Source: Protoeuglena noctilucae
Taxonomy: Eukaryota
Assembly (NCBI GenBank): GCA_958009085.1
Contig: OY253681.1
Location: 186,001-250,000 of the forward strand
DNA: 64,000 bases
Direction: 5' to 3'
The notes beneath the pieces were generated by a model. That model did not search any database, was not told where the DNA came from, and saw only the letters and a list, made by a program, of their open reading frames with translations. This document shows positions 4,201 through 61,569 of this stretch, one piece after another. How positions within the stretch are numbered: the first letter of the stretch is position 1; every line of letters begins with the position of its first letter. The position numbers and the translations under genes were made by a program.

Positions 4201-4639
4201 AAAACGTCCAGCAGTCGGACGACGCGGGGGTGGTCGATGGAGCTGGCCAGGGCGATCTCGCGCTTGATCAGGTGCATGGGCGGCGTGTTGGTGCCGGCCT
4301 TGGCGTTCACTGCCTGCGGAGGGCACTAGGTGAGGCATTGGAACTCGATGCGACATGCAGACCACTGCGTCAGGATTCGCTGGTCCAGCAAAAAGGGACG
4401 ACTGGAGCTGCGCCTGCTGAGTGTCCCGTGGCTTATATCGACGCCGGCTGCCTCAGCCCGCGGCTCGCCTTGAGAGCGACGTGCGTCCCTGGGTTGTGGC
4501 GGTCTTCCGCCTCGTACACCGTCGCAGTGCCGCCCGTGTTGAGCAGCCGGATGACGACATAGCGGCCTCCCTTCAACTGGTCCCCGAATACGAAGGGCGC
4601 GTTGCCCTTGCGGGCCGGCGTGAGCTCAGCGGAGCTCAT
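1223..4639 (-). CDS. Ser/Thr protein kinase (CAMK/SnRK2-like) with a low-complexity C-terminal tail, multi-exon
   Basis: Exons encode LNTGGTATV, VALK|AV, HRDIKPEN, DFGLAK, GTPDYMAPE, DAWAVGV and RLLSTNPEMRP. Start and last exons are uncertain. Confidence 0.85.
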
Positions 4640-5039
4640 GGGCTCACCGAGCCTGGGTCGGGGTCGCGAGTCGCGGAGAGGGTCCAGCGTTCAGCTGCGG
4701 CATGCCACATAGAGTCTCACGGCCCATGGGGGGCACGAACGCTCGGGCATCGCGCCACGTCGGAGGGAAAAGCGGGGACAACGAGTTCTCGGAGCAGCGC
4801 GAATGCGGCGCGCTTCCTGCACAATTGCGGCGCACGATGCGTTCGATGAAGTTAAAACCAGAAAACGCCCTTCGCGCGAGGCTATCGCGCGGAGATGGCG
4901 AGTCTTGGAGGCGCGCGGCCCCAAAGACCGTTGGACTCCCCGAGAGGGACTGCATCGACAGCGCTGCGGGTGCGGCCAGAAAACGCTACCCGAAACTTGC
5001 TGTCATCAAAACTTGACGTGGAGAAGCGCGACGTGCGTC

Positions 5040-6702: not shown

Positions 6703-7418
6703 CCTCTCGTCAAGAGCACAGGGCGCGCCTCCTACCCAGCCGCAGAATCGTCAGTTGAATGCATCCAAAACCATTCCTCCCTGGCCTCCAGCATTATGGG
6801 TGGGGCGGGCACCAAGCCACCCATGCCCCTCACGCTTTTCGGACGCCCTCCCGCGCCATCCGTCTCACCTCTTCAGCAGTACGGGCAGCACCGGAGCTCA
6901 GGCAAACAACCCGGCGCTTTTCATGTCGCGGCTGTCGCAGCGGGGCCAGAGCCGCGACGAGGCCCGGTGTCGTGGATGACGAGATGCAGCCAGCCTTGCA
7001 CAAGGTAGCAGAGAGTTGCCCAACGCGGGCGGCCTCGTTCACTACACGAGTGAATGCTTTGGGATTAGCCGGGCCAGCCAGCGCCATACTGCTGGCTGAG
7101 TGGTCGGGACTGGCTAGCTTGAAGCACAACGATTCAAAATGGCTCGCTGAGCATGCCGATTCTCTCGTCGAAATTGCTGAGTATGGGGGGCAGCGTCCTG
7201 CGACGGAGTGGTCGGGCACGCGGGGAATTCTGGAAACGCGAATTCTGACAAGTGCATTTCCTCCGGCCGGCGACCGCGACGCTCCGCAGTGATCCACGCG
7301 GCAGATGTGCTAGCAAGGAGTGGCGGGGCGCTTTCGCGGTGGGCTTCGCCTTCTCCTTCGACCCCCAGGGCCTCTCTCGCCACATGGCCCGGCGCGGATC
7401 GCGATCGCGCGACCGGTG

Positions 7419-9798
7419 ATGCAGGCGCTTCACGATGCCGTCTGCCTGGTGAGTGCCAAATGCCGGGCCGAGCCGAGCATAGGAGGAGGCGACCGCAATG
7501 CCGCACCGAGCGATCAGGACGGCGCTGTGCCCGCTCCTGTGGCTGGATGCTGCGCCCCGATTGCCCGCCTCCGCATTTGCAGGCTGCACCGCCATCTCGG
7601 CCGTGCGCTGGGGCAGCCTGCCGCGCTCCCGCCGCGGATCGGGGAGCGAGGCGTCGCGGGGGATGGCAGTGGGTGGGCCAGCCGAGGCGGGTGCGCGTCG
7701 CGGCCGGCGATCTGGCAGGCGCGACGGGCGCCGTGGAGTCTGTGACAACCATCGCAAATGTAGGTTCCATCGCGAGCCTGACAGGGCCCGTGGTGCAGGT
7801 GCTGGGCGACATGGCCAACGGCAGTCCACCGGTGCTGGGCCCCCTTGTGGCCCTTTTGGCCGAGGACGTCGCCAACGTCACCTCCCTCAACTTCGGTGCG
7901 TTTGCGGAATGCCCATCGACGCCTCGGCTTGGATGCGCGCTCCTCCTGGGGCGAGCTCGCGCTTCGCCCGACAAAACACAACGCTGTTTCTCCCCTGCCC
8001 AGTCCCGGAGTCACTTCTGCACCTGGGCCCCGTATACTACGCGTTCCTCATGCGACCCTCGCCCTTCTGGGCTATGGTGGACTACTTCCTGTTCTCTCCG
8101 CTGTCCACGCTCGCACAGGCGAGTGTGGCCAGGGCCAGCCCCGTGCCCGGCCTCCTGTGCCCGGCGCCTTCCTCTGCCCACCCCGGCATTCCGACATTCC
8201 TGCGTGTCCTTCTCCGCCCTCGCAGGCTAAGTGGGGCCCTGAGGACTTCTCGCTGCGGGATCGTTTGGGGGGCGGGAACTACGGGGTCACCTACGAGGCC
8301 GTGAGGAGGGTGAACGGTGCGAAGGTCACGGGGCAGGAGCTGACGGCTGAGGAGAAGAAGCGACGGGTGGTGCTGAAGAGAGGCGAGCGAGCGAGGGTAG
8401 ACGCGCTGCGTTTGGCGCACGACCCTCCCGGCTGTCGATGGATCACATGGGTCATTGCTGAGATGCCCAGCGTGCCTCCCCCGTTGCAGTGGGAGAGAAG
8501 CGGGGCTCGCAGTCCGTGCGCGCGGACTTCCTGGCGCAGGGCACCATCGCGCGTGGGGTGGCGGAGACGGGGGTGGTCGAGGCGTACATGGGGCGCAAGC
8601 TCAGCCGGGTGCCGCTTGCCCGCGGCCGCGTGGCCGAGTACCTGGGAGACTTTGTCGCGGACTACACGGAGGGCGCGTTCGCGAAGGGTACGCAGTGGCT
8701 CGTGTGGACGTTTGAGTCCGACTCGACGCTCTCCGACGCCCTGGAGGGGGCCCTGGGGCCCTTCCCGGAGTGCCTGCACGAGGCGAGTCGCGCACACCAT
8801 GCTGCGTGCGCAGCCCTGCCCCCGCCTGCACCCTGGGCTGTGCCGACGGGCCCGCGCGTGCGTTGCGGGCGCAGATCATGCTGCGGCGCGAGCCGCCGGC
8901 CAAGTGGGACCAGGAGCGGCGGGATCATGAGACGATCAAGGCCATCATGCGGCAGATCTTCCAGGGCCTCGAGGTCCTGCACGGGGCGGGGATCGTGCAC
9001 CGGGACGTCAAGCCCGAGAACATCCTCGTGACGGTCGAGGGGCGCATCAAGCTCATCGACTTCGGGGCCGCCACGGACCTCTCGACGGGCATCAACTACA
9101 GCCCGCAGTACGGCATGCTGGACCCGCGGTACAGGTGCGGCCGGGCGGTGGCGTTGCGTTGCGAAGTCGGCCGCTGCGTGCTGTCCATGTCCATGTCGGC
9201 TGGGCGCGCCGCGTTCTCGCAGTCCGCCGGAGCAGCTGGTCCTCCCCGCCGAGACGCCCAAGTCCCCGCCGCCCCTGCTGGCCACGCTCTCGGCGCCCTT
9301 CATTTGGCTGTACGGCGCGCCGGATCTGTTTGACACGTACTCGGGTGAGCGTCGGCTGTTTGTGCTCCAAAGTAGCAGGCGCGTTTCGCGATTGGTCGAC
9401 AGCCTGATAAGGCCCGCTCGTCGCTCCTCCCGCAGCGGGGGTCATCTTGGTCCAGATGTCCGTCCCCTCGCTGCGGTCCAAGACGGCGCAGAAGACCTTC
9501 ATCGACGAGTTGATCAAGTGCCAGGCAAGTTCGTGCGCGAGATGGCGGGAACGGGGTTGGAGAGTAAGTGCTCGCATGCCATTACATCGACGCCCCGTGT
9601 CGGCTCGCGCAGTTCGATCTCAAGGCCTGGAGGTCGTCCGGCCTGCCCCGAGCCCGCTTCGCTGACTACAGCCTGCTCGATCGCGCCAACGGCGCGGGGT
9701 GGGACCTCGCCTGTCAGCTCCTGAGCAAGCGCAACAGGCTGAATCGGGGCCGGCTGACGGCGGGTCAGGCGCTGGGGCACCGGTACTTCCGGTCCTGA
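7419..9798 (+). CDS. STN8: Thylakoid-associated Ser/Thr kinase, STN8/STL1-type
   Basis: Transit-peptide-like N-terminus; [78 protein letters not shown]. No STN7-type lumenal Cys pair was seen. Eight introns, four with GC donors. Confidence 0.85.
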
Positions 9799-10053
9799 GC
9801 TAGAAGAGACCTCCTACAAAAGCGTGCTGCACGATAGTTGGGTAGCGTTGCCAGTGCAAGCGCGAGCAGAGACTGAGGTAAAAGGGTGCTGGTGAGCCCG
9901 TTCGCGAGCCGAGGGCGCCCGCCAGACTCACCCGTTGATATGATTGAACATAAAAGAGCTAACGGGTGACTTCCGGGGCCGGAAGGGTGGGGATTAACGG
10001 TCGCGCGAGTTTCCACGATTTCTCCTTCTCGCATCAGGCGCGTCTGGGGAGCA

Positions 10054-10885
10054 TGAGCGTCGTCATCGTAAGCTCTATGGAAACGCGGGATACATTGGCG
10101 GCTACAACGGCGCCTCCATCGGCTCCGTCCGCCGCACAAGGCAAGCCACGATGGCAGCAACGTGGCGCAGTCTCGGGGAGCCAGCGCGCCACAATCGCTC
10201 CAGTTTTCCATTCCCAGGCATCGCGTCCGGATCTAGTGAGAGCTCAGGATCGCAGGGTCAAGCATCCTCCAAGCAAAGGCGGACGCGTCCCCCGTCACGC
10301 GAGGTCGTCGTCTCGTCGGATGAGAGCACAAGCGAGTCCTCATCCACTTCCTCTGAGGAGTCCCAAGACCCGTTATCCGAGGACAGTTTGTCTCAGCCGG
10401 GCTCTGCGCGCACACCCAAGGCTAGCCACTCCGCCCCCACTTCGTCCCACAAGCACCCGTCCGACGTGCGGCAGCCTGTGGGTCCCGACAAGGAGGTCAT
10501 GAGCGACCCGCCGTCACTCTCCTTGGGCCAAGACTTCGATTGGACGGGAGACGGCAGCAGCGCGGGGGAGGACGCGGTCGCTGGCAAGAGCAGCGGCGCC
10601 TCGCCCAGCCGTGCATCCCAGCCGGCCAGTGGCAGTGCCCCCTCCCAGGAGGCGGCCGTCTCCGGCCCGTGCACCGCGCGCAGGGGCATCAAGCGCCGTC
10701 TGGAGCCCGAGTTCGCCGTCGCAGAGGACTCGTTTGCGTCCGCAGCCGCCAGCGCCTCGCTCGGCTCCCCAGAGACGCCGACCCGGGGGCTGTGGGCGTG
10801 CGTCCCGCGCGAGCTGGCAGCTCAGGTCCTCTCAGCCGCTCTGGTGCTCGCTTACATGTACGTCGTGCACCCGGACATTGTTTGA
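10054..10885 (+). CDS. Unknown Ser-rich protein with a single C-terminal transmembrane segment (tail-anchored)
   Basis: ATG at 10054. A probable GC-AG intron at 10141-10217 restores frame into ORF 10151..10885, which ends VLSAALVLAYMYVVHPDIV*. Confidence 0.5.
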
Positions 10886-10952
10886 AAGCACGCGCGGCTG
10901 TTGAAGGGCGCCGCCTCAAACACTGAAACACAACGCATGTGCTGCAGCGCCG

Positions 10953-12667
10953 TCACAGCACTGTTACGTCCAGGATGAGGCTCGTGGGGGTCCAGGGCAC
11001 CCTCACCTGCAGGAACGCAGTCAGGCTGGGGATGTCGAGCAACGTCGCTGGCGTGTTCTCGGGCGCAGGTCAATCTATACCCCTCACACCCCAGTCAGCG
11101 TCACCCAGCCTCACCTGGAATAGCGGATCTCCCAGGCTGAGCAGAATCTTGTCCGTAACGCTGGGCGGCGACTGCCATGCGTCCTGAAAGAAGAATTCGG
11201 TCGTTGACACATCCCGGGCGCCCGCGGCCCGCAGCAGCGCGTCGATGGTGCAAGGGACGAACCGAGGCCAGAAGCGCCCGTCCTCCTCGGCGCGCATCGT
11301 GACCGTGACGTCCAAGTCAGCGGGGCGGAGGGCCCGGACCTGGAAAATACCGCCCTGCAGCCCCAGCGCGGCGTCTGGGCCCTGGCTGGTCGTCGTGGGC
11401 GACTCCTCCGGTGTCATGTCCGATGCAGGCTCGGAAGGGCTTCGCTTAAGCACCCCCTGGGTGACTCCCGTCGAGGGATCCTCCGTGATGGGCAGGGAGC
11501 CAAAGCCCAAGCTCTGCGGAGGACGCGGACGAAGGGACTGGGCTGGGTTGCTATGTGTGGTGCTGCCTCTTGCACTTTGTTGTTGTGTCATCGCCGGGCG
11601 GCGCCCACAGCAAGTGGCTGCAGCCATGCCGGGGGCGGCAATTGGCGAGCGGCGCATGCAGCGACAGCGCATGTGGTGTGGCACTGCATGTGGTGACGAC
11701 ATTGCATAGGGGGCAGCCGCGCATGAGCCCGTCCCGCTTGCGTCTCGCCTTGGCGTTTCCGAGGGAGGGCTGCTCGCCCCAGATGAGAGACCAGGACTGC
11801 AGGTAACCCGCCTGCTGGAGCCTCCCCATGAGGTCCTGCACGGCTGCGGCCGTGGCGGACGCCGGGGCACGGCCCGTAGGCGCAGCGGCAGCCGCTTCCT
11901 GGAGGGCCGCGATCCGCCCCGGCAGGAGACGCCCAGCGACGCGGCGACCGACAGATTGATAGAAGGCCCGGACGTCCTCTGGGTCTGCGAAGCGATAGGG
12001 GCGAGCGGCGGTGCAGAGGATGTGCTTCAGCTGCGTAGTAGAACACATCGACAACACATCGCTGCGTAGGACAACACATCGCTGTTGCGTGGCAGGCGGC
12101 GCTGGGTCGGCACCTTGGACGGTCCGCGCTGCCAGCTTCCAGGTGCAGTAGGAGAGGAACTGGAAGTAGCCCCCGACCCACTTCTCCCCCGTTATCTCTT
12201 GCGGCGTGGCCTTCACGCGCATGTCCGCGTAGACACGCTGGAATCCCGCCATCTCGGACTCCCGCAGCTTCGCCAGGGTACGCTGCATGTCCGCCTCGGG
12301 GCCGTCCCACACCGCCACAAGAGAGTCGTACACGGCGCCAATCAGGGCCGACGCCACCGCGTTGTCCACCCGACGCAGCGCCTGATCGCCTCTGCGACCG
12401 CAGCGCCACCGCCTTGATGGGCGAGAAGGCATGCAGCATCCCAGGCCTTCCAAACCCTGAGCGCGATCCTCACCCCGTCGCCCTGGAGAACTCATCATTG
12501 AAGAAGTCCAGGCCACCTGCACACGCAGGCGCCGCTGCGAGTGCACAGGGCAGCGAGAGCAGCACGGCCCGCCTCGGGGCTGGTGGGGCCGGCTTCTCTG
12601 CTTCCGCCGTAGCACGCACGCATCGCTGTCCTGCAGAAAGAGCGAGAGGGATTGCACATCTCGCCAT
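10953..12667 (-). CDS. Unknown plastid protein, probably thylakoid-lumen targeted (twin-arginine signal)
   Basis: N-terminus MARCAIPLALSAGQRCVRATA...PRRAVLLSLPCALAAAPACA (RR, hydrophobic stretch, AxA). Five exons with consistent phases; last exon VRVPWTPTSLILDVTVL*. Confidence 0.65.
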
Positions 12668-13215: not shown

Positions 13216-14772
13216 CTAGACGGCCTGGCCACGGTCGAGGGACTGCTTAAGCTTGGCAATGGCCTTGGCCGGGTTGAGCCCCTTGGGGCACACGCTGGTG
13301 CAGTTCATGATGGTCTTGCACCGGTAGAGCTTGAAGGGGTCGTTGAGGGCCGCCAGCCGCTCGGCCGTCATGTCGTCCCTCGAGTCGATCACCCACCGGT
13401 ACGCCTGGAGCAGGGCTGCCGGGCCCAGGTACTTGTCCGAGTTCCACCAGTAAGAGGGGCAGCTCGTGCTGCAGCATGCACACAGGATGCACTCGTACAG
13501 GCCGTCCAGCTGCGGGCAGGGACGGCGGGGCGATTCGTCTCTCCGGCGGTGACCTCTGCACCAGCGCTCTTGACAGCGGCAGCTCGTGAGCGGCCCTGTG
13601 CTGCACGCGAATATAGCACACCTTGGCGCGGTCCTCTCGGGACTGGTACAGCTCCTTCCCGGGCATGTCCTCCCGAGTCTGCAAGTAGGGCTTAATGCTC
13701 TTGAGCTGGGCGTAGAAGTTGCTCATGTCGACCACCAGGTCCCGGACGACGAACATGTGCGGCAGGGGCGCGATCTTGGTGACCTGCGGGGCGGCGGATG
13801 CGGGAGGGACTGCGTCAACGTGCGGCGTGCGATGTGCCACGCTCTCGCGCTGCGTTCCCCTGCAAGCTTCTTGCCTTGGACGCGTCCCGGTCGACCTTGG
13901 TGAGGCACGCGAGCCCGTTCGTGCCATCCATGTTCATGGCGCACGAGCCGCAGATGCCCTCACGGCACGACCGACGGAAGGACAGCTTCGGGTCCTGCTC
14001 GTTCTTGATGGCGAAGAGCACGTCCAGCATCATCGGCCCGCACTTGTTGATGTCCACCGTGTATTCGTCGTACCTGGGGCTCCCGCCCGCGTCCGGGTCC
14101 CACCTGCGGTAGAAGTCCGGGGCCGGGCCCGCATTCGGCTCCAATCGCCACCTCTGTCCCCACGCTCTCTTCCGCGTCTCTGGGACGCAGACTCACCGGT
14201 ACACATGAAACTTCTTCAGCAGCTGCGGCTTGGCCCCCGAGATGGACTCCTCGACCGGCTGCGCGAGCGCAGCTGCCTCGGTTGATGTCTTCACGGGCCT
14301 GCGCGCAGCGCGAGGCAGTTCCGGTGGGCAGAGGAGGGGAGCAGATAGGCACAGAGCACGCGCAGATCCAGCGAGAAGCTCGCGCCCATCAGCGCCTCCG
14401 CTCGGCGGCGCGGGGACCCTTGTGCAGAGTTGTTGCCCGTGGCCACACGGGGCCCGGCGAAGCCCAGGCCGCCGACCCGAGAGCCCGCGGGATTAGCAGC
14501 GACAAAGAGCATCGAAAGAGGCCCGTTTTGGACGGGGCCCCCGGCCGTAAGGGGACCAACAGCGGCAAGACTTTGACTGGGCAGGGGGCAAGGGGCTCCC
14601 GGGACCCTCGGTAGCCACCGCGCCGGCGCTCGGGACGCTGTGCGACACCAAAGCCATTGCACGAACCCATCGAAAGCCACCCAGCGGGCTGGAGAGCGCC
14701 CTGGAGACCCCCGACACACCTGCCCCCCGACAGCCGCGCCAACTGCGCAAGCGCCGCTGTCGCCCTCCTCAT
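13216..14772 (-). CDS. SDH2: Succinate dehydrogenase iron-sulfur subunit, mitochondrial
   Basis: [82 protein letters not shown]. Confidence 0.97.
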
Positions 14773-17360: not shown

Positions 17361-17481
17361 ACGTCTCCTTCCTCTTGCATGCCGCCGCCGACTCGCACAT
17401 TCGCGACCCGGCAGCGCCGGTTGAAGAACATATTCAAATGCAAGCAAGCACGTGGCAGGTGGGGCTCCCGACACTCGACCT

Positions 17482-19932: not shown

Positions 19933-22587
<2,655 letters not shown>

Positions 22588-45199: not shown

Positions 45200-46627
45200 C
45201 TAAACGATACGTTCAAGCTCCCGGGCGTACATGAGCGAGTTGGTGATAAGCTGGAGGGTGGGGATCGCCTCGTGCGACTTCTCCGTGGCCTCCTGCGGCC
45301 AAGGGCCGTCAGCTTCCCTTTGCCACCTCAGGAACGCGACAGAGAGCAACGAGGTCTGGACGGACGGCGCGCCTGCGCCCATGGCCCGCACCTTGAACTG
45401 GAAAACACCGCCCAACACCTTCCAGCCCCGCTCTTCGGCAATCTTTGAAACCTCTGCCTCGGAATCCACCATCAGCAGCTCCTGCAGGGAGGGATTGACA
45501 GACGCTGGAACCCATGCTCCCCACAACCATGCTCCCGCCAACACAGAACACTGCCGAGTGTCAGCAGGGCTAGCACAGACCACCATCGCCCCCCCTGCCA
45601 CCCCTCACCTGCGCGTCCTTCACTTTTAGAGTATGGTATGCCTGTTCGATGCACGACGCGACCTCGGACCGCACTGTCGACATGAGCATCGCGGTTAGCC
45701 ACCCAAACGCTGGGTCAGGGATGTGCTTCTTACTCTCGCTGACGTTGTTGTATGCCCCATCCATCATCCACTGCTCTACTTGAATTACGTGACTGCGAGG
45801 CAACGGGACTTGTCGAGGTTTCTTTGTTGCGCCCCAGCCAACTCACGCCGCAGCTGCTGCCGTGGCTGGCGTGCAAGCTGAGCTGACCCGACCGGCATAA
45901 GCCCGCACTGCGCACCTGATGTATTTATCGCTGCGGGCCTCGCGGGGCAGCAGCTCGAGTTCCATGTGGAATTCCGCCGTGCGATTTTCGACCAGCAGGG
46001 ACATGAGGTGCAGCGCCAGCAGGAGGTTTTGATGCGCGGACGGTGGCATGCCGACCTCGGCGGCCGACGAATAGAAGGTCTGCAGCATGCTAAAGTTCCG
46101 CTGGAAAGCATCTTTGTCCTCCATCTTTGCTGCCACCTGCGGCACGAGGCTTGTGCGGCCTTTGATGGCGGATCCGGGGCGCCAAGGAGCGCTGGACGAT
46201 AAAAGATATCTTTGATAGCGGATCCGGGACGCCAAGGCGCGCTGGACGATAAAATATATGTAAGGAGCAAGATGCAAGCAAGGACGTGGCCGCCAGTCAC
46301 CTTGACGGCGTACTCGAGGCCCTCTTGTGCGACAGTGAGCTCGGCCTTGACCGAGGGTGAAACGGAGCCGGGGACTAGGCCCGGGAAAGCCACGACTTTG
46401 GACTTGATTTTGTTTACGAGCTGGTCGCATGCCTTGAGGTCGTTCTTAGAGAAAGCTTTCTGGGGAAATAAGCGGGGGTGGTGAGTTTGCCACCGCAGCG
46501 GCCCCGGGCCGCGCCTCGCGTGACACACAGTGCGCGTAGCCAGGACAGACGGCCGTGCGGATCGTTAGCAGCGCGCACGCGCCTTGAGCTCCTCCACAAA
46601 GCCCTCCGTCTCTTTCAGCGCGGCCAT
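45200..46627 (-). CDS. RPN12: 26S proteasome lid subunit RPN12/PSMD8
   Basis: LLVENRTAEFHMELELL, EQWMMDGAYN, TVRSEVASCIEQAY, LMYARELERIV*. Confidence 0.96.
46161..46260. repeat. 50-bp tandem duplication inside RPN12 intron 2
   Basis: tttgat(g/a)gcggatccggg(g/a)cgccaagg(a/c)gcgctggacgataaaa(g/t)atat(c/g) x2. Confidence 0.9.
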
Positions 46628-47036: not shown

Positions 47037-49884
47037 ATGGTGTCGCCCGATTTGGGAGATGCGGCCTTGCCACTGTCGACGATACGTGCGGTGAGTCAAC
47101 GTCGGTGCTCATGTGGTCTCTGAGGCTCGGGCGGGGAGAGCCCGGACTGCAGAGCCCCGTTGCGTCCCGCAGGAGGCACGCGCCTGCCTTCTGAGCGCGC
47201 TTGACGCGCGTCGGGGGAAGAAGCTGCTCGTGCTGGACCGGCGCGTGGCGCCCATCGTGAACCAGCTGGTGGAGAAGCCCCTATTGAGGGAGCACGGCGT
47301 GGAGGGCGACGTGTTGCTGCCCCTGCCTGGCCAGCACGGCACTCTTGCGGCCGCAGCGCTGGCGGTGCCGGCGCAATGCACGCACGTCGTCTTCCTGATG
47401 CGCCCGGACGTGGAGCAGGTGCCCAACCTGGTGGCGTGGGTCAAGGCGATCCGCGCCGACCACCCAGACGTCGAGATGTCCGCCGTGTTCGTTCCCCGGC
47501 GCACTTTGGCTTACGACCAGGCCATCGACGAGGCGGGCATCTCCGGCGACCTCGCGTGCTTCGAGGCGGACCTCACGATGCTGCCCCTGGAACGTGACGT
47601 GCTGTCGTTGGAGCTCGAGGGGTCGCTGGGGGAGGTGGCCTTGGGCGGGGACACGACGTCGCTGTTCTACACGGCGACGGCGCTCCTGCGGCTCCAGCAG
47701 CGCTTCGGCGGCGTCGAGACGGTCCTGGCGGTCGGCAGGGCGGCCGGGGCCACGTGCGGCATCCTGGCCCGGCTGCGGCACGGGCTGCAGGTGTCGCAGC
47801 TCCCTCGCTCGGGTGGCAAGCTCGGGAGCATCGTGGTGTTTGACCGGGCCGCGGACCTCGTGACGCCGCTGCTCACCCAGATGACCTACGAGGGTCTCAT
47901 TGACGAGCTGCTGGTGAGGGGCTTCGTGGCACGTCGCATATTGTTGAACAATATGATAGGCAATATGTCCTGGTGGTCTCAGTCGTCAGGGAGTAGCTCC
48001 TGGCAGGGCAGGCCAGAGAGCTGGTTGGGTTGAGTCAATCCCTGAGGCTGGGTCCGTTAGGTAAGATGCGACGCTTCCTCCGCCCTTCTGATCCCTCTGC
48101 AGGGCATCACGAATGGCATGGTGGAGTTTGAGAAGCCTCCAGACACCCCCGTGCGCGAGACGGGCGGGGCCAGCACGAGCGGGGCAGGGACATCGGCCGG
48201 CGATGGGCGTGGGGCGCGGCCTCAGATGCAGCGTGCGGCCTTGAACTCGTCGGATAAGGTGTTTCGGGAGATCCGGGATTTGTCGTACGCGGCGGCGGCC
48301 GCCTGGATCCGGGAGGTGAGCGACGGAGCGAGTGAGGGATGACCTCTGACCAACCATGACTGAGCCTTCCTGAGAAGCCCGGAGGAGAAAGGGGGTGCGC
48401 GAGTTGCCTCGGACAGCGCAAGATTCGAACCAATACGTTTCACCCCGGTCCTCGCCCCCCGCAGAAGGCAGCGACGATGCAGCAGGACTACCGTAGCCTC
48501 GACGCCCATGCGCAGAGCATGCAGGGCGTCAAGGCCTTCGTGAAGCGCCTGCACACGCTCCCGGAGCTGCAGAGACACACGAGCATCGCCGAGACGCTGT
48601 CAACCGGTGCACGTGACGAGGCTTTCATGGCCCGTATCAGAGCAGAGCAGTCACTGTTGGAGGGGGGCTCCCAAGCCGGGGAGATGGCTGCAGAGGTGCT
48701 GGAGGGGATGATGGTGGACCGAAAGCCTTTGGAGAGCGTGCTCAGGCAAGGACAGCTGGGCTTTTGATTCATGTCACCGGTGCTGCCGGCGTACCTGCCC
48801 GCCTTTCGCTGGATTGTTCACCTGGTGTCGTGAAGCCACCACCCTCAGTGACTGTTCGGATCTCATGCTCGATTCCATGAACCCGCTGCTCTCAGGCTCC
48901 TCTGCCTCGCGACGCACACCCCCGGCGGCGTGCCGCGGCGGTCCTGGGAGGGCCTTTGCCGCGCGCTCCTACACAGCTACGGCCACGAGCACAGCCTGAC
49001 GCTCCAGGACCTGCGCAAGGCCGGGCTGGTGTGCCCCAAGGACGGCGGCAAGTCGCCTTACACGGTGCTCAAGCGTCCCCTGGGCCTTCTGGTGGATGCG
49101 CTGGATGAGAGGAACCCCGACGATGCGGCGTACGTGTACGGAGGGTACGCGCCCATATGGTGAGAGGCAGTGGTCCCGCCGCGTGCCTGGAGACGAGCGC
49201 GAGGATATTTGTAGATCGGAGGGTAGCTTGATTACGCTCTGACGGCGTCTGGTGTCCCGGGTCTGCCCCGGTGCGCGATGAGGGCCCGCCTGCATCCCCC
49301 CGTCTTGCGGTTGCAGTGTGGGCCTTGCCATGGCACCCCTGCCCCGCTCGCCCTCGCAGTGTCCGGGTCGTCGAGCGATGGCTTAAAGGCACGCTGCCGG
49401 CGGACGCAGTCAAGCAGGCGACGGGCGTGTGTTTCGAGATGAAGCAGACGGTCGATGCCCGGGGCGTCCCTGTCGAGGTGAGGGCTGCTGAGAAGAGCGA
49501 GATGGAAGACCCTTTCTTGTTGCTTCGTTGGCAGCTGAGGAACGGGGCAGTGTCGCTGCCCCTGTCTCGCAGACGCGCGCGGACGTGCGTCCCACGAGGC
49601 AGCGTGGCGGGTCCGTCGACGATGCCGGCGGCTCTTCGGCCTCTCCGGCCCCAGCCCCGGGTGCCTTGGTGGTGGTCTTCCTGGGCGGGGTATGCCCTGC
49701 GGAGATCTCTGCGCTGCGGCACCTGGAGAAGCGCGGGCTGATCCCTGGCGGTCTGGTGGTGCTCACGACCAAGGTCATCAACGGCAACAGCCTCGTGCGG
49801 TCGCTGGTGCCCGCCGCGGTGCAGCGGGCCGACCTGCTCCGGCAGTCACTGGCTGAGAAATGGGCAGCGGTTGGGGCGGGATGA
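47037..49884 (+). CDS. VPS33: Vacuolar protein sorting 33 (Sec1/Munc18 family)
   Basis: GKKLLVLD, FVPRRT, PLERDVLSLE, DRAADLVTPLLTQMTYEGLIDE, LNSSDKVFREIRD, LLHSYGHEH, YVYGGYAP, VVFLGGVCPAEISALR. Confidence 0.95.
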
Positions 49885-51733: not shown

Positions 51734-53741
51734 ATGTCGTATGGGGGGCGGGGAGGAGGCCCCGGTCGGGGCGGGAGGGGGCACGGGAGGCAGGGCATGG
51801 CGGCCCCGCAGGCTCGGAAAGTCTGGACCTACATTCCCGAGAGCCGCATGATGTCTGAGCTGCAAGACTTGGAGACGCAGGCGAGTTTCACCTGTCGCGC
51901 ATAGCAGGTCCGGCAACTGTCCATCGTGCAGAGGCCTCATGCGTGCCCCGCTTGCCTCTGCAGATCGACGTGGCCATTGCGACGCGGCAAACGCAGATGT
52001 TGTACACCGCAGCGGAGAGCATGCCCAAGTACCTGAACCTGCGGATCTTCTTGTGGCACAGCACGCGCAACCAGCCGCGCACCCGCCGCCCTGCTGGCGC
52101 GGCGGACGGCGGTGCGGGTCCGCCGGACTCGTCGTCGGCGTGGGACTCGCCCGCCGTGCTCTCCGGGGCGTTGCCTGCGGAGCGTGATGGCGACCCTCCC
52201 AGCTGGACGCTGCACATCCACGGCAAGCTCTTTTCGGAGGAGGTGGTGAAGATCGAGTCGCGGATCCCGGACGCGCGTTCGCCGACGGGTTTCAAGCGCC
52301 TGGAGTCGCACGAGATCCGCGAACAGGAGGTGCAGGGGACGGCGCTGTCGGCGCTCGTGCGACGCATGGAAATCAAGGCGAGCCACGGCACCTTTCCTGG
52401 TCATGACCTTCTGCATGCATTGTTCTGACTGTCCGCTGCGCCTTCGCGCTCCCGTCTCACTGCAGCCGTGGCTCCGCTTCGCTCTCAGATTACGGCCCTG
52501 GACGACCCCAACGCACCTCCCTTCGTGGTGTCGTGGGACAAGTCCCTGCACGGAATGAGTTTAGTGGAGGGATTTGAAGTGCGCCGGGCGGGGTCCTTCC
52601 CAGTCAAGGCGACGGTGACGGTGGACGTCGAGAGCACGCCGGAGCTGTTTGAGGTGGATGAGGACTTGCAGGCGGTCATCGGCCTCCAGGAGTGCACCAA
52701 GGGGCAAGCCATCCACGCGGTGTGGAAGTACATTCACGCGCACAACCTGCAGGACGCCAACGTGCCGATGCGCATGGTGAGCCGGCGGGTGGCATAGCTC
52801 AGGTGGTGGTGAGGGAGCGAGGACTGCGCGAGGGTGGGCAGTTCCAGCACCGGCCGTCCCCGCAGACGCCCGACGACACGCTCCGTCGTTTGTTTGGTGA
52901 CAACCTCACGCAGCTGCACCAGGTCGGGGAGCGCGTGGACGCGCACTTGCGGCCGCTGCCGCCCGTGACGCTCGAGCACACCATCGACCCCGTCGCCTCG
53001 ACTACGGGGACCGTGGACGTGAGCGGAGATGGGTTTTCTTACCTCTTTACGATGCCCTGGAGCGCAGCGATTGTTGCCGCTGTTTGGGAGTGTCGCGATG
53101 CGTCTTGATTTGCAAAAGAGAGTCGCTGCGAGTTGCTTCCCCGCCCCCCGTCCCCAGGTCTTCAACATCCGCGTGATGCAGCCCACGATGGCGCCGCAGG
53201 GGGATTTCGTGCGCCAGGCAGCGCCCGACCGGGGCCGCCTGGGCGAGATCTCGGGCCCTCTGACCGACGTGGTGTCCCGCCTGGACGAACGCCGCCGCGC
53301 CCGGGCGCTCCTGCACGGTTTCTCCGAGTCGCCCGTCGACTTTATCACGCAAATGCTCGTCTTGCAGGGGCAGGACGTCCGGTACCACCTCGGTGCGGCG
53401 CCCACGCAGCGTGGCACCCTCGCTCGTGCTTTTACGCGACGTGGCTTGCATGGACGCCCGTAACAGCGCGGATCGCACGGCGCGTTGCTGCCGAGCTGAC
53501 GTCCATGCGAAGAAGCTTGCTTTCGCGTGTGTCTTTGTGCTCCGCAGACCCCTCCACCAACACGCACACGTACATCTTTGGCCGGCCCTCTGAGGTTTTC
53601 CAGAAGCCCTGGATCAACCACGCGGTGCTCAAGTACTTCTACCAGCGCAACCAGATCGTCACCGGCAAGCAGATCGCCGACAGGGACGTCGTGGGGCCCG
53701 ATGGGCACCGCAAGCCCCATACGCGAGGCGCTGGCAAATAG
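51734..53741 (+). CDS. SWP73: SWI/SNF subunit BAF60/SWP73 (SWIB domain)
   Basis: IPESRMMSELQDLETQID, LRIFLWH, PSWTLHIHGKL, GFEVRRAG, IHAVWKYIHAHNLQD, GFSESPVDFI, VFQKPWINHAVLKY. Confidence 0.9.
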
Positions 53742-53974: not shown

Positions 53975-56900
53975 TCAGTACTCGCCCGGCCCGTCGCTGG
54001 CCCCCGCGGCATCCAGCGCGCCCATGCAAGCCTCGATCGACTCTTGTGCCTCCCTCTCCGGCAGCCTGCGCACGTCCCCCGCGTCCATGGCGACCCCGCA
54101 CATGGGGCACTGCGCGTTGGCCTCCACGACCCGCCTCATGCTCGACACGCGGTAGGGCATGAGACACGAGGAGCACGCGCCCCACTCCTCCCGTGGGACG
54201 CGCTTGCCGCTCGCCACGCAGAAGGGAAGCATCGACTTGCAGTGGATGCAGTCCAGGTCCGTCTGGATCAAAGGAACAGAGGGTTTGAGGTCTGAGGTCT
54301 GTCGGTGCCGAGCACAAAGTGCAGGGCATGAGCACGACGACGGGGCATCGGTATAGGCATGAAAAATGGGCATGGGTATAAGGATAGGCACAAGTGCAGG
54401 GCATGTAGGCTGCCAGCACCTCACCTCTGGCCCGTCCACGCCACACCGAGGGCACGGCACCATTTCCTCCGGCAGCTCATCTCCCTCGGCCCTCTTGCGA
54501 ACCACTGCCTCGATCTTGCGGCGGTACTGGGCGTTGACTGCGAGAGGCACGTCGTGAGAGATGCTTGAGCGTGCTGTCTCCACTCATCAGACAGCCGGAG
54601 CATCGCTTGGTTGGTATTCTGGCCCGGGCTGTCTACATCGCCTCTCACACACACACCCTCTCGCTCGCCATGCGCGTGCACACCACACCACACATCCCCG
54701 CCCCTCACCCTGGCTCTTGTACTCCGGTCGCATGAGCACGACGGCGTATTCGAAGGCCGTGGCCTTGAGCCCCGCGCGCTGGCACTCGATGACGGTGCTC
54801 GTGAGGATGGGCACGACGTGGAGAGGGAATTTGGAGATGTTGGCCGCGACGCGCGCCAGCATCCGAGCCGCGCCCACGTGGTCCTCCAGCTTCACCAGGG
54901 TGCGCACTGCGGGGAGGGCAGACGGATGGGACTGAGGGTGGTGCACCAAAGTGCGCACTGCGTGCCAGCATGCAGGCGCGGTGCACCCAGCGCTGTGGGC
55001 ATGTCAGTGCATCCCATGCAAACGCCACTGGAATCACGTCAGTGCAACTCAGAGTTGCACCGCAATCGCCCAAGCCTGCGCTCCCAATCATCGCGGGCCC
55101 CACAGACCCCTCCTCTACCACAGCGCCCGCCGCACCGCCCCACAGTGCGCCACCTTCTCCGCGAAACAGCCCCACCGCGGCTCACCGAGAATGTACGAGT
55201 GCACGAGGAGCAGCGATTTGGCCAGGTCCGCCGGGACGCGCTTCCCACGCTGCCTGAGCTCCCGGTACATCTCGAACAGACTGGCGTGTGCCGCACGGTA
55301 GTTGCCGTTGTCCTCCCGCTCCATCCTCGCGTGCATCACGGCGTGGTCCGCCGCGTCCTCGGGCTTCCCCAGCGCCATCTGCAGCTTGAACATGTACTTG
55401 GCGGCGAGCTTGCCGGCTGCAGACGACTGCTCCAGCCAGGACAGGACCTGCTCGGCCACGGGCGGGTAGCGCTGCACGACACCGATCGCCTCCTCCAGCG
55501 CCGCCTCGGAGCCGTCCCGGAGCAGCAGGTCCACCGCGCCGGGGTACTCCCGGCACCGCAAAAGGCACCGGGCCGCGTCGGTCCATTTCTGGCGCTCCTG
55601 GTAGTGCTGAGCTGCGCGGAACAGCACCCGCGCCTCCACGCCCTCCCGGTCATCGATCAGCGACAGGAACCACTCGACCAAATCGTGCCGCGTGGCCTCA
55701 TCCAGCGCCTCGTCCAGTCGGCCGGCAATGACGAAGAACTCCACGGCCTGCTTGAGCTGGCCCAGGTTGAGGCAGTACCGGGCCACCATCAGCGCGCCCT
55801 GCGCGTCCCGCGTCTTCCGCGCGATCTGGAAGGCCCGCTGCGGGTTTTTCAGCTTGTCCAGCAGCACCCGCACCGCGCTGGCCCACTGTCCCGCGGCCTC
55901 GTGCGACGCCAGCGCATCCGCGAACCGGCCCTCGGCCTCCTGCACCGCGGCGTACTCGGAATGCACCTGCGGGGCGATGGGGAACGCAGAGCCGGGCTGG
56001 GGAGAGGGCGGGGCAAGACATGCACAGTGCACTCATCAGGCGCTGCGGGGTTATGCTGTGCACTTGATGCTGCTGATGCGGTAGCGCACGGCTTGCAGAG
56101 AGCTACTGGGTTTTCCACCGACAGGCAAATATGCACGTCTGCCCCAGTACCCGTCGCGGCCCACCGCAAGCACCCAACCTGGCCCCACCCTGCAAGCGAC
56201 CTCTCGCCTGGACCGACTGCACGCGCGGCATGATGGGACGCAGCGCCGTCCAGTTCTTGCTGCGAATGTAGATGGCCGCCGCGCGGTCGAGCATGTTGGC
56301 GGCCACGAACATTTCCGCGGCGTCCGTCAGCTGAGACTGGCCCTCCAGGATGAGCGCAGCCTCGCGGCACAGGTTGCGGTCCCGGGAGTCCAGGCAAGCG
56401 GCCTCGCCGGCCTGGATCTGACCCGTCTGCGGCAGTGGGAAAAGTGGAAACGATCGTCAGCGTCGACGTGAACCATCGGTGGCAGATACCGAGCCAGCTG
56501 CCATGAACAGCCGTGGGCAGAGGGTGGTGCCGTGATGCTGCAGCGCTTCAGGTGTGACGCTATCACTCAGTGTGGCTAGCGTCACTGCCAGTGCCCCCCT
56601 TGCCACCTCTCCCCCAGCCCCCGTCCTCGCCTGCAGCAGCGCCCGCACCCTCCCCGCCACGCATCGCTCCACCAGCCGCGCGTCCCTGTCCTCCGCATCC
56701 TTGGCCATCTCCGAGGCCAGCGCGCCGTCGTAGTGCTGCAGCGCCGCGTCGTAGTCGCACCGCGTCTCGAGCATCCGCGCGTACTCCGCCGACACCTCCG
56801 CCACGCTGCAGAGATGGGGCAGAGGGGAGATGAGATGCGGGTGCGGGTGCGGGGTGTGCAGAGGTGCAGAGCGGATGTGGGATGTGCGGAGGTGCAGAGC

Positions 56901-59900
56901 AGATGCAATTGCGGAGTGCAGAGGCGCGGAGAGGTTGCAGATGCAGGACGAGGTGCTATAGCGGGGTGCAGAGTGCGCTCGCCAAGTGCAGGCCAGCAAT
57001 GCGGCGCTCCGCCTGGGACACAAAGCATCACCCACCAACCCCACCCGTGTCTCACCTGCCCGGGTCCAGGCTCTCCGCCAGCTCCAGCGCCTTGTCCCAG
57101 TGCCTCAGGTCCCTCCTCAGCTCCAGGGCCGCCCGCTTCTCGGAGCTGGCCAGCAGCAGCCGCTGGGCCTGGTCGTACTCCTGGTGCACCAGCGCCATCA
57201 CGTGGCCCGCCAGAAGGTTCTTGTCTTCACGGTCCTGCAGGCCCTGGAGCGTAATCACCAGGCCCGCGTCCCCCACGATCCTGCGATGGATTCAACGTAG
57301 GGAGGCGAGGGGTGAGAGGTGAGAGGTGAGAGGCAAGATGACACGTCGCATTGTGAAGCTGTGGGTCTGCGGGTGGGGCTTGAAGCGTGACGCAGTGATG
57401 CGCAGGTGGCGACGGTGGCATTCCCCACAGCGCCGACCTGCGCTCCGCACCCGCGCGCACCCATCGCCCATCAACAGGAATGCAACCAACATCTGCCACG
57501 CCTCGCCGGTCTCACCGCAGGCACCGTATCGCGAGCGCCAGGTCCAGGGAGTCCAGCGCCGCGAAGGCCAGCTGGGTCCACTCGGAGGGACCGTCGATCG
57601 CCTTGGCTGCCTCCCAGGCGTCCTCGAGGCGCCCCAGGGCCAGCAGGGCCTTGAACCGGTCCCGCGGGTGCACGGCGCCGTCCGCCCGCAGCGCCCGGTG
57701 GGTGTCCAGGACGAGGGAGCTGAGGGCACCCCCACCCACCTGGGCCTGCACGATGCCGTCCACCAGGGCAATGGGAACCGCGTCCCCTGCAGGCCGGCTC
57801 CACACCGAGCGCACCGAGGGGCCCTTGACGTGCGTGGACACGTGGAGGTACGCCATGAGGGCCTTGCGGGAGGCGGCTACGAAAAGATTGGGGTCGTGGG
57901 CGTCCCAAACCACGCGCGTGACAGTGCCAGCTGCAGCCACGTCCGCCACCAGCAGCGAGAGGCCGTTGGCCGGGGTGAGGAGATGTAAAGTGCCGTTGAC
58001 GTCCGCGAAAATGCACTTGGTCCCCGTCGTGTTGGGCCACACCGCCCGGATGCCGCAGGTGTGGGAGAACTCCTCGGCCACCGTGTTGGTCTGGGAGGAC
58101 AGGGAGAGGCTCGGCGGGTGGGTGTGACTGCGAGGCAGTGTGACATCAATTAGATCTCAATATGATATGTAAAGATCGAAAGTCACGCCCGTTTGACTCG
58201 CCATGAAGCAGTGGCGCTGGCTGCGTGTCGTGGAGTGGGATTCGAACAATTACCATAACCATTCTCACCTCAGGCGAATAGAAGCAGACCTTGCCCGACT
58301 CTGTGCCGTACACAAACATGGTGCTGGAGCTGGCCAGGCACGCGATGTTGGCCGGCTGCCCCCGCCCGGGGAGCACCACATCCTCCACGTCAGCCTCTGC
58401 GGATGGTTTGAAACATAGCAGTATTGGATTACTTGAGTAACAGCGCGCTTTCTCTCTGCAGAGCAGGGCAGCACACTCGCATCGGGCCAAGAGGATCTTG
58501 CTGCATTGCATGGCAAGACGCCTCATCATCTCGATGCATTGCTGCAGTCGAGCAGTGGTGCAGCACCACGCATACGCGCACAATGCTCTACTCCAGCGCA
58601 GCATCCGGCAGGCCGCTCTCACCGCCCCCGTGCTCCCCCGGCAGGCGGTGCACGAAGACGCGCCCGTCGGACTGCACGGCCCCGAACTCCTGAGTCAGGG
58701 CGATGCCGTCCACGGACCCCACGAACTCCTTCTGCACCACGAAGCCCCCGTCGACGGCGTTGTGGGGGTACACCCACGCGTGGTTGTTGAGGGCACAGGC
58801 GAAGTGCAGGGGCCCGCACGCCAGGACGGCCGGCTCGGTGGTGAGGCCCACTGCGGGAGGCGCGGCTGGGACGCTCATGTGAAGGCAAGGCACAGGACGG
58901 GTGACATGGGCAACGGCGTGCATGCTGGAATCACTGCGTGATGGCTGGACGAGCAGCGCATCGCACAGCGCACGCACGCACGCTTCCGCATCGCAAACAC
59001 CCGCCACGTCTGCCCCGGCCGCCCCGCCGCTCACCGGTGGCCACGCTCCCCTCGACCCCTGCGTTCCTTGCGTCCATGAGGCTGACCTCGTTCAGAGAGG
59101 ATAGCCAGCACATGGCGGTGCCGAACGAGGCGTTGAGAGGAGGCAGGGCCGCGACGAAACTCAGGATGGCGCCCTTGTCGTTCGACACCGACAGCACCTG
59201 ACCGTCCGGGGTCCACTGCGGGACATGGCACGGCATGTGGGGGGGAGTCGCTCAACACAGGATGGCATCTTCTGCAGCATGTGCGACCAGCAACTGCCAC
59301 AGCCGGGCACGCTCGTGTGCCGACCGCCGGCACTCAGCGGCTGCCGAGAGCGGGGTAACGACCACGCACGCTGCGGCGCGGAGGGTCGTGACCGACCCAT
59401 CGGGCCATGCCTCGTGTCCCTCCCGCACTCACGTCGAGCCCCGTGGCGATTTGCGAGGGATCCAGGGTGATGAGCTCCGATCGCAGTTCCTTGATCTCCG
59501 CGCCCACCTCGACCAGCCGCACCTCCTTCCCAAACGCGCACGCCGCACGGGACAGTGGACCCGAAAAGGCGCAAGTCCTGCGGGCCAAGCAATCACAACC
59601 GCTATGCTGTGCTAAAGACACGCACGCGTCTCGCTCGCAATCCACGCCCCCGTCACCACAGCTTGCGGTCGTCACTGTGTCTGGCACGATCTGCCCCCAC
59701 CACACCCACAACAGCACCCTCCCATGCCTCGCCTCATGTTTGGCATGACCTTCTCGGAGCAGACCTCCTCCTGCACCTCCCGCCCGTACATGGACTGCAC
59801 GATGACCTGCCCGCTGGAGAAGGCGATCGCGATGTAGCCCTTCCCGAACCAGTGGTGCGTCAGTATCGTGCCGTAAACTGGCAGGAACTGCAGCTCCATC

Positions 59901-61569
59901 GGCGTCTCCTCTGTACCTGACTGCGTGATTTTCACCACGTAGAGGCGCTTGGCATCCAACACCTGCAGAAAGGGAGGGCGAGAAAGTCAGGGTGCGCCTC
60001 AAGCTGCGGGGTAGTGGGGCTGACGCAAAACAGGAGTGATCCCATCTCTCACCACAGACAGCCCCACACAGCCACCTCTCAGCACCAACCCCATCTCTCA
60101 CCACAGACAGTTCCAGACAGCCACCTCTTAGCACCAATCCCATCTCTCACCACAGACAGCCACCCGGGCGGCAGCTTCCCTGCAACCGCCAGCTCCGGCC
60201 CACCCAGGGCGTCCCAGGCCAGCTCGGAGGGCATGGACGTGAAAGAGAACGTGCGGATGACCTGGAACGTCTCCGCTTGGATGACCGAGACGCTGCGGTC
60301 GTCGGAAGACAACGCAAAGCGGCCCGCGCCGACCCCAACGATGGCACCGATGCGCTTGGTGTGGATGCCAGCGCGACCCACGACCTTCTGCGTGCGCTCA
60401 TCGTACACTGTGACGCTGCCCTTGACTGCGGGGTGCAACAGCAGGGGCGGCTGTCTCGCATCCAGCGGCACGGGGGCGGCGGGCGGTTGCGAGGCTGTGA
60501 CGGTGCGGGGTTATGATGAGCAAAAGGCCCAAAGACGCGATTCAGGCTTGGCGGAGAGGAACAGCGCTGCCACGGAACGCACGATCGCGACGGCTGCTGT
60601 TACTTGGGGCCCGCCAGACCCCGCTTTCATTGCTGCGGTGGCGCGGCCTCACCTGTACCGAGCACGAGCACCGGCAAGTGGGGGTCCCACCCTGCGGCCG
60701 TGACCTCTCGCGAGGGCAGGTTGTGGTTGTCGAGGGAAGCCCGCGACCAGATTTGCAGTGCCTGCCCCGTCTTGGTCACGCACGCCTGCAGAGATGCAAG
60801 AGCACTTTCTCGCCTAGGAAAGGCACAGCTATGATAATATGATATGAACGACGCGTGGGTATCACGATGGCAATCGTGAGAGGGCGCCCAGCAGTCCTGA
60901 GCCCGCCAGACTGGCCCCTCGCTGCCCCTGCAAGCGCCCACGCACCAGACGGTCGCCCGCCGCATCCCACTCGAGCACCGAGCACATGGGGCCCCCGCCC
61001 CGGGACATGGCCATCGCCTTCTCCTTCTCATCCATAGTCATCGCAAAGTCCGCCTCGACCTGGCCCTTCCTGCAGAGACACCACGCTGCATGTGTTGGGG
61101 CGCAGCTGCAGCGAAAAGGCCACGGGGCCAGCCGGCCGGGGCGTGACGCGCCTGTTGTAAATCTGCACGGCGAAACGACTGCCGTTGACAGCGAGGAGGT
61201 CGCCCCGCGTCGACCATTTGAAGATGAGGCCCGGCTGGCCCGTGTCATTCACTTTGATCGTGAACAGGTCCTTCTGCGGAGGCCGTGGGGAGTAATTGGG
61301 TATGCCATCAGCAGGTATGCGAACAAAGGTCTCCACAGAAGGCGACACCGGTGGAATCCGGGAGAGGGCGCGGGGCTGGACTGGCAACAGCGACGCCGAG
61401 CCATTCCCAGCCCCCGCGAGGCGCGCGGGGGGGCTGGGCAGCGGCGCAAGGTCGGTCTGGTGGCTGATAAGGCCATGAATTGTCATGACACATTGCGACT
61501 TCGCAGGCTCCGGCTTCCCACCGGCCCCTGCTACCCTCGCAGCGCTCCAGAGGCTCGCCCGCTCACCAT
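53975..61569 (-). CDS. WDR19: Intraflagellar transport protein 144 (WD40 + TPR + C-terminal zinc ribbon)
   Basis: [115 protein letters not shown]. Confidence 0.95.
56808..56975. repeat. Degenerate (g)tgcagag-type short repeats in a WDR19 intron
   Basis: Recurrent gtgcagag / tgcggag / tgcagat units. Confidence 0.55.
60041..60163. repeat. Minisatellite of about 49 bp (about 2.5 copies) in a WDR19 intron
   Basis: cccatctctcaccacagacag occurs three times, with intervening cagccacctct(c/t)agcaccaa. Confidence 0.85.

Follow-up and report, generated by a model that had tools for sequence, protein, structure and literature searches.

Genes and GC-AG introns of the window

The subject of this analysis is the set of spliceosomal introns in a 64-kb stretch of Protoeuglena noctilucae DNA (contig OY253681.1, positions 186,001 to 250,000; hereafter the window, in which all coordinates below are counted), where about one intron in five starts with GC. 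The G+C content of the window is 64-69% in each 4-kb bin (about 66% overall), and Pfam scans of single exons identified ordinary nuclear genes on both strands. The genes assigned by Pfam include the following.

SDH2: Fer2_3 plus 4Fe-4S domains
SnRK1/AMPK-like kinase: kinase with an adenylate-sensor domain
RPN12: CSN8_PSD8 domain
VPS33: Sec1 domain
WDR19/IFT144, Rad21, ESF1, a CRT-like transporter, XAP5 and several kinases

A sequence-only reading of this DNA had placed GC-AG introns in housekeeping genes, and Pfam agrees with it on SDH2, SnRK1, RPN12, VPS33 and WDR19. The DNA is nuclear and comes from a marine green alga that is rich in GC and dense in introns. Chlorophyte proteins are the homologues of an STN8-like thylakoid kinase encoded there, the closest named relatives of one of its exons (97 amino acids) being the STN8 of Chromochloris zofingiensis (64% identity) and proteins of Monoraphidium (61%) and Coccomyxa (60%), and 35-48% of sampled words of 4400-14399 are present in four RNA libraries labelled marine metagenome. 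An exon of the SnRK1 gene compared with a protein atlas matched generic kinase clusters only, and a gene with a SWIB domain found two distant relatives only among representative proteins. Scans of metagenome contigs with the STN8-like exon and with an exon of a TEX47-like gene gave no match, nor did a comparison of the window with Rfam at gathering thresholds, small nuclear RNAs (snRNAs) included.

The sequence-only reading had listed 25 GC donors by coordinate, and the dinucleotide at all 25 positions is indeed a G followed by a C. The donor sequence is GC(G/A)AG at 22 of these sites, GCGCG at two (46582 and 61151) and GG|GCGAGT at one (23070), with an exonic AG preceding the donor at 23 of the 25. 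With 34 copies of the heptamer AGGCGAG on both strands of the window taken together, the motif alone is weak proof of a donor. The sites were ranked by the evidence that bears on each. RNA-derived sequence supports ten of them (three through joints in RNA contigs and seven through junctions in transcript-derived proteins), continuity of a homologue or profile supports seven (56207, 56630, 51881, 52378, 27488, 44985 and 48746), and a gene model is the sole support for six (4468, 11748, 23860, 42850, 46582 and 61151). The last two, 10141 and 23070, are candidates only, the gene model having picked neither. Two GC-AG introns came in addition to the list, one with homologue support (59732, minus strand) and one from the gene model only (44104, minus strand).

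Assembled contigs of four marine metatranscriptome RNA runs were aligned to 4400-24399, and the 15 joints listed, of 49, were considered; the other 34 may contain support for 4468, 10141, 11748, 23070 and 23860. Two of them were set aside, namely a skip with AC..GT ends found in one run with a 25-nucleotide side and a joint that goes back on the genome. For each of the 13 others, every equivalent cut was enumerated, which gave ten GT-AG and three GC-AG introns. The three GC-AG joints coincide with the claimed donors 13874, 20082 and 20635 on the minus strand; each was found in all four runs and no GT-AG reading of any of them is possible.

13784..13874, minus strand: GC-AG intron of SDH2; RNA joint in four of four runs, GC..AG being the only cut; Fer2_3 profile continuous
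19996..20082, minus strand: GC-AG intron of the SnRK1/AMPK-like kinase gene; RNA joint in four of four runs; no in-frame GT-AG alternative
20450..20635, minus strand: GC-AG intron of the SnRK1/AMPK-like kinase gene; RNA joint in four of four runs; ends CT..GC on the plus strand

Seven further sites are fixed by two proteins that are 100% identical to the window. The search with the STN8-like exon returned P0003 (481 amino acids, Logan source), whose longest contig measures 1715 nucleotides; the coding region spans 2120 nucleotides in the genome, showing that P0003 comes from spliced RNA. This protein maps exactly onto eight exons, and enumerating all the cuts that reproduce it gave seven introns, three GT-AG and four GC-AG. 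P0013 (342 amino acids, JGI and Logan sources; contig of 1594 nucleotides against a genomic span of 1655) belongs to a gene for a coiled-coil protein at 38808-40462, in which three of six introns are GC-AG.

8119..8225, plus strand: GC-AG intron 2 of the STN8-like kinase gene; exact mapping of P0003, GC..AG being the sole cut ending in AG
8383..8489, plus strand: GC-AG intron 3 of the same gene; exact mapping of P0003
8783..8874, plus strand: GC-AG intron 4 of the same gene; exact mapping of P0003
9525..9612, plus strand: GC-AG intron 7 of the same gene, with a GCAAGT donor; exact mapping of P0003
39214..39300, plus strand: GC-AG intron of the coiled-coil protein gene; exact mapping of P0013
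39358..39486, plus strand: GC-AG intron of the coiled-coil protein gene; exact mapping of P0013
40267..40362, plus strand: GC-AG intron of the coiled-coil protein gene; exact mapping of P0013, no in-frame GT-AG alternative

Real GC donors, as the sequence-only reading had proposed, are thus fixed by RNA-derived sequence at ten sites, none of which has an equivalent GT-AG cut.

A few irregular RNA contigs were also seen in these genes. The AC..GT joint belongs to SDH2, where it skips 192 nucleotides (13731-13922) in run X1, the other three runs lacking it and one of its sides measuring 25 nucleotides; an artefact of this contig or, alternatively, a rare non-canonical event would explain it. Near the STN8-like kinase gene, a contig of run X3 connects 7282 with 9268 by way of 18 foreign letters, and several contigs diverge into unlike sequence at 9004-9066, within the conserved catalytic exon of the kinase. 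Both the joint and the run-offs are probably chimeric assemblies with kinases of other organisms.

Homologues and profiles supported further junctions. The gene model of WDR19 was compared with P0001 (61% identical, 1287 amino acids): of its 19 junctions, four lie upstream of the coverage, including 61151, while the 15 that are covered, twelve GT and three GC, have no gap at the junction. For VPS33, the exon that follows donor 48746 aligns from its first residue with positions 409-495 of human VPS33A; a search of the exon 48465-48743 against the PDB gave no match. The second exon of Rad21 begins at position 17 of the Rad21_Rec8_N profile, and the 46-nucleotide first exon gives about 15 residues.

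55967..56207, minus strand: GC-AG intron of WDR19/IFT144; gapless across the junction against P0001
56427..56630, minus strand: GC-AG intron of WDR19/IFT144; gapless across the junction against P0001
59578..59732, minus strand: GC-AG intron of WDR19/IFT144; gene model and P0001, with a gap of one residue located two residues ahead of the junction
51881..51963, plus strand: GC-AG intron of the SWIB-domain (BAF60-like) gene; gene model, contiguous against P0014 (42% identical)
52378..52488, plus strand: GC-AG intron of the SWIB-domain gene; gene model, contiguous alignment with P0014 and P0015 that reaches the junction and continues past it
48746..48895, plus strand: GC-AG intron of VPS33, with a GCAAGG donor; Sec1 profile matched at 281-375 ahead of the junction and at 385-470 behind it
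27397..27488, minus strand: GC-AG intron of a kinase/beta-helix gene; Pkinase profile matched at 65-151 ahead of the junction and at 157-259 behind it, and gene model
44886..44985, minus strand: GC-AG first intron of Rad21; Rad21_Rec8_N profile and gene model

Frequency and donor context of the GC-AG introns

Two of the verified sets were assembled without regard to donor type, and they agree on how common these introns are. GC-AG introns make up 3 of the 13 RNA joints and 3 of the 15 covered WDR19 junctions, giving 6/28 or 21% together (95% interval 8-41%), and the gene model of the whole window gives 27 of 123 introns or 22% (95% interval 15-30%). The sequence-only reading had counted about 25 GC-AG introns in 120-130, or about 20%, and this estimate holds against both verified sets and against the 26-32 GC donors that the gene finder placed among 122-125 introns.

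This gene finder chains exons using codon log-odds, donor and acceptor matrices that are shared between donor types and a strand mask, and its signals were retrained on a set of 41 verified introns. With a penalty of 0 to -4 nats on each GC donor, it returned the 122-125 introns just mentioned, recovering 35 of the 41 verified introns and 22 of the 25 claimed donors. At -6 nats, it still placed 21 GC donors among 120 introns and recovered 34 of 41. When restricted to GT donors, it returned 107 introns, none of them GC, lost about 1.6 kb of coding sequence and recovered only 23 of the 41 verified introns, breaking most of the multi-intron genes, so that any annotation of this organism must allow GC donors. 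Decoy donors served as a control: at a penalty of -3, seven GG or four GA donors were accepted as compared to 27 GC donors, and the gain in score over the GT-only model was 76 nats for GG, 12 nats for GA and 295 nats for GC, indicating a background of about four to seven false calls. In-frame and stop-free GT-AG alternatives were also listed for 23 claimed sites chosen by the model and for the two unclaimed ones; the best alternative was 5-17 nats worse or did not exist.

The 41 verified introns have a length of 82-421 nucleotides. All of the 28 GT donors among them read GTG, and GCAG, mostly preceded by a C-rich tract, is the acceptor sequence in 35 of the 41. The GC introns measure 82-241 nucleotides and do not differ in length from the GT introns (p = 0.40). 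Differences were found in the bases that surround the donor: A-2 and G-1 are both present in 13 of 13 GC donors and in 12 of 28 GT donors, A+4 and G+5 in 13 of 13 and 16 of 28, and both pairs together (the complete context, AG|GC.AG in the GC donors) in 13 of 13 and 4 of 28 (Fisher p = 1.35e-7). The earlier proposal that GC donors are compensated by a strict exonic AG was thus correct in what it named and incomplete, since the verified GC donors always carry A+4 and G+5 as well.

In animals and plants, ordinary GC-AG introns make up about 1% of introns, are of the U2 type, keep an AG acceptor and show a compensatory consensus at the other donor positions that are complementary to U1. The introns of the window are of the same type and show the same compensation, at a frequency that is about 20-fold higher. 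A donor with ATCC after the first two bases and a CCTTRAY branch box are the consensus of U12-type introns, and neither was found in any of 25 GC introns. None of the 41 verified introns has a GA donor, and the GC plus GA pattern of dinoflagellates was not seen among them. As judged from the comparison of transcripts with the genome, from the enhanced consensus and from the lack of U12 motifs, the GC-AG introns of the window are to be classed as ordinary U2-type introns, presumably removed by the major spliceosome.

T and C at position +2 were counted in the full-context donors. A C stands at +2 in 13 of 17 verified and in 21 of 38 modelled full-context donors (55-76%), and the heptamers AGGCGAG and AGGTGAG are in use as donors at 19 of 34 and 17 of 27 occurrences, respectively. 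Interior intron bases have a C/(C+T) of 0.603 (n = 4701). Full-context donors amount to 38 of 123 modelled introns (31%), and multiplying this share by a neutral C share of 0.6 predicts about 18% GC-AG introns, which is near the observed share. These static counts suggest that T and C at +2 are near-neutral in the full context under a GC-biased composition.

Origin of the GC donors

The sequence-only reading had presented the abundance of GC-AG introns as exceptional, which does not hold up, comparable or higher fractions having been described in Micromonas pusilla, Aureococcus and Emiliania huxleyi. Iwata and Gotoh (2011) gave a GC-AG share of 1.3% overall, as compared to 39.6% for Aureococcus anophagefferens, 22.2% for Micromonas pusilla (G+C content 65.9%) and 7.7% for Chlorella sp.; the authors tied GC-AG introns to G+C content, found canonical 5' ends of U1 and called the origin of these introns an enigma (PMC3033335). 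The window resembles their algae in its G+C content (66% as compared to 65.9-69.5%) and in a GC-AG share far above 1.3%, and its share of about 20% matches that of Micromonas pusilla, also a marine green alga, with 22% (PMC3033335). It differs from Micromonas in being far more intron-dense (a minimum of 41 verified introns over 64 kb, seven of them in one kinase gene), and none of the ten matches of the STN8-like exon came from Micromonas. Neither the full-context rule nor the C share at +2 is reported in the available part of that study (PMC3033335).

Other GC-rich algae complete this picture. Feldmesser et al. (2014) gave 56-65% GC donors for Emiliania huxleyi and found the JGI gene models biased toward GT (PMC4028052). 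Like our alga, Emiliania is GC-rich (65%) and keeps the AG acceptor; its GC-AG introns were verified by expressed sequence tags, RNA sequencing and reverse-transcription PCR, prediction limited to GT mis-annotates its genes, and the authors blame the GC content. Unlike our chlorophyte, in which GT still accounts for about 80% of donors, this haptophyte has GC as its majority donor (PMC4028052). In pelagophytes, predicted GC-AG shares are 14-17% in GC-rich species as compared to 0.32% in a lower-GC relative, GC content being blamed again, but these stramenopiles have few introns (0.1-0.9 per gene) and the values are predictions (bioRxiv 10.1101/2024.10.30.620910). Among GC-rich and intron-dense green algae, Pucker and Brockington (2018) counted 7090 major non-canonical versus 117336 canonical sites in Chlorella sorokiniana and 8057 versus 106289 in Micractinium conductrix, which are raised counts as well; these 6-7% are about one third of the share found here, depend on annotation and pool GC-AG with AT-AC (PMC6310983). 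The G+C content of at least about 64% that Aureococcus, Micromonas pusilla, Emiliania and Pelagomonas have in common is also that of the window. In the literature on GC-AG introns of green algae (Chlamydomonas, Chlorella, Micromonas and chlorophytes), Micromonas pusilla was the only case found near 20%. The phenomenon is thus already known in GC-rich algae, and what the window adds is an intron-dense chlorophyte example together with a quantitative context rule.

The explanation that we prefer, with a probability of about 0.65, is that these are context-compensated U2-type GC-AG introns whose +2 position is near-neutral in a genome of GC-biased composition. Of its components, the introns themselves, their frequency in the window and the context rule are direct observations. 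A C at +2 would cost one base pair with U1 snRNA and would be tolerated only if the consensus is present at all the other contacts, A-2, G-1, G or A at +3, A+4 and G+5. Within such full-context donors, T and C would be roughly neutral alternatives, and the GC-biased composition would leave C in somewhat over half of them, mutation or conversion bias being the presumed driver. GC-biased mutation had been offered earlier as one of two alternatives, and the counts of +2 C in full-context donors, the use of the two heptamers and the intron C/(C+T) of 0.60 all fit it, while the bias itself, as the driver, stays conjectural.

Several points weigh against this explanation or the numbers behind it. 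The two GCGCGT donors known from the gene model only, 46582 and 61151, violate the rule of an A at +4. The C share at +2 has a wide error, being based on 17 and 38 donors, and neutrality is deduced from a static count rather than from substitutions between species. Micromonas RCC299 has 64% G+C and yet 2.7% GC-AG introns (PMC3033335), so that base composition alone does not predict the GC-AG share. The frequency estimates cover one 64-kb window, and the set of 41 verified introns is enriched in GC donors through two genes that were picked for having several of them, which affects the frequency in that set and leaves the context comparison unaffected. The gene finder also made errors (false introns at 9441-9482 and 9760-10648 and, in one run, acceptors misassigned to donors 48746 and 56207), and because the verified introns served to train its donor matrix, GC donors in a weak context could be under-called.

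The high GC-AG share could alternatively stem from a changed machine instead of from base composition, if an altered reader of the 5' splice site (a variant or modified U1 or U6 snRNA, U1C or Prp8) made C at +2 as good as T. The sequence-only reading had offered relaxed recognition of +2, through altered U1, U6 or U5 pairing or Prp8, as its other alternative, and the analysis gave an altered U1, U6 or Prp8 no support. Full-context donors with C are as common as those with T, as such a reader would predict, and to explain Micromonas pusilla and Aureococcus, Iwata and Gotoh suggested base modification or proteins of the U1 small nuclear ribonucleoprotein, given that RCC299 is not accounted for by composition alone (PMC3033335). 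However, the first 11 nucleotides of U1 match the universal consensus in GC-AG-rich algae (PMC3033335), and the complete compensating context is still there in all 13 verified GC donors, as in ordinary GC-AG introns elsewhere, which argues that C at +2 still costs binding energy. We thus regard an altered reader as unlikely, and the narrower proposal that an snRNA modification or a changed contact of U1C, U6 or Prp8 renders C and T functionally equivalent in the full context as equally so. GC donors might instead be selected as weak sites for regulated or alternative splicing or for intron retention. Reportedly, Thanaraj and Clark in 2001 and Farrer in 2002 tied animal GC-AG introns to alternative splicing. 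No alternative use of the donors was seen in the RNA contigs, which are assembled and do not show isoform ratios. High intron retention accompanies the GC donors of Emiliania (PMC4028052), but the GC-AG introns of the window are spread over unrelated housekeeping genes, with up to four of the seven introns of one gene, and the C share at +2 is near the neutral expectation, which makes selection for regulation rather improbable.

Boundaries might also have been misplaced next to GT donors that are truly used, or the C might be an assembly or strain variant of T. Such errors would have most room at the six sites known from the gene model and at the two candidates, 10141 and 23070, and the finder, when run without penalty (penalty 0), accepts 31 GG decoys. 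Misplacement is nevertheless refuted at the ten RNA-derived sites, and the six model-only sites have margins of 10-15 nats over their GT-AG alternatives, equal to those of the RNA-proven sites; as for a variant in the assembly, four DNA runs contain all sampled words of 4400-14399. We consider this explanation very improbable. Still less credible is an origin of the GC-AG introns by copying of a mobile, introner-like element with a GC donor. Introner elements are known in Micromonas pusilla (reportedly from Worden in 2009 and Huff in 2016), which is itself rich in GC-AG introns, yet an all-against-all blastn comparison of 129 introns of the window gave no non-self match at E <= 1e-3, and the GC introns do not differ in length from the GT introns, as described above.

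With context compensation and a near-neutral +2 position, the window offers a simple and testable account of the published GC-AG puzzle: if it applies to the whole genome and to other algae, two quantities, the proportion of donors with the full consensus and the neutral C/(C+T), would suffice to predict the GC-AG share of a genome. If recognition were altered instead, this intron-dense genome would provide thousands of natural pairs of GC and GT donors and could solve why Micromonas pusilla (22%) accumulates GC-AG introns and RCC299 (2.7%) does not (PMC3033335).

Gene-model-only sites and a selenoprotein K-like gene

The sites that the gene model proposed by itself are listed here, together with the two candidates.

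61070..61151, minus strand: putative GC-AG intron with a GCGCGT donor, near the 5' end of WDR19; gene model, best GT-AG 15 nats worse
42641..42850, minus strand: putative GC-AG intron of Rad21; gene model only, best GT-AG 15 nats worse
44017..44104, minus strand: putative GC-AG intron of Rad21 (ATG|GCGAGT); gene model only, absent from the earlier list
46460..46582, minus strand: putative GC-AG intron of RPN12 with a GCGCGT donor; gene model only, best GT-AG 12 nats worse
4314..4468, minus strand: putative GC-AG intron of a protein kinase gene; gene model only, best GT-AG 11 nats worse
11514..11748, minus strand: putative GC-AG intron of a gene of unknown family; gene model only, best GT-AG 14 nats worse
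23860..23979, plus strand: putative GC-AG intron of the TEX47-like gene; gene model only, best GT-AG 14 nats worse
10141..10217, plus strand: candidate GC-AG intron; frames fit the model of the sequence-only reading, not picked by the gene model
23070..23158, plus strand: candidate GC-AG intron; phase fits an 11-nucleotide first exon from an ATG at 23059, not picked by the gene model

At 61151, comparison of the single exons with the PDB gave a weak match of the upstream exon to IFT144 residues 4-40 (E = 0.7) and no IFT144 match for the downstream exon. The 5' end of the WDR19 model (61274-62011, minus strand) adds three short exons further upstream and is probably wrong: these exons are doubtful because the exon at 61154-61273 already matches IFT144 from residue 4. 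At candidate 10141, an in-frame ATG lies just 3' of the donor (at about 10150) and the proposed first exon has a low G+C content at third codon positions, about 59% by hand count; it is possible that the gene starts without this intron at the downstream ATG. Candidate 23070 has the context GG|GCGAGT, while every verified GC donor has an exonic AG instead.

A gene resembling SelK/SelG was also found at 16273-17039 (plus strand), with three introns that the RNA confirms as GT-AG. Its spliced frame runs from the ATG at 16273 to an in-frame TGA at 17031, which is followed by two codons and then a TAA; going by this arrangement of codons, the layout is that of selenoprotein K, the predicted selenocysteine being third from the end. 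A search of 16900-17700 with Rfam at E <= 1 gave no selenocysteine insertion sequence (SECIS) element, although the RNA contigs extend to 17438. The gene finder missed this gene, probably because of the TGA. A long glycine run in it (16780-16857, plus strand) is skipped as a repeat in the alignment of the RNA contigs, and the joint that goes back on the genome, by 72 from 16595 to 16524 and in one RNA run, also lies in this gene.

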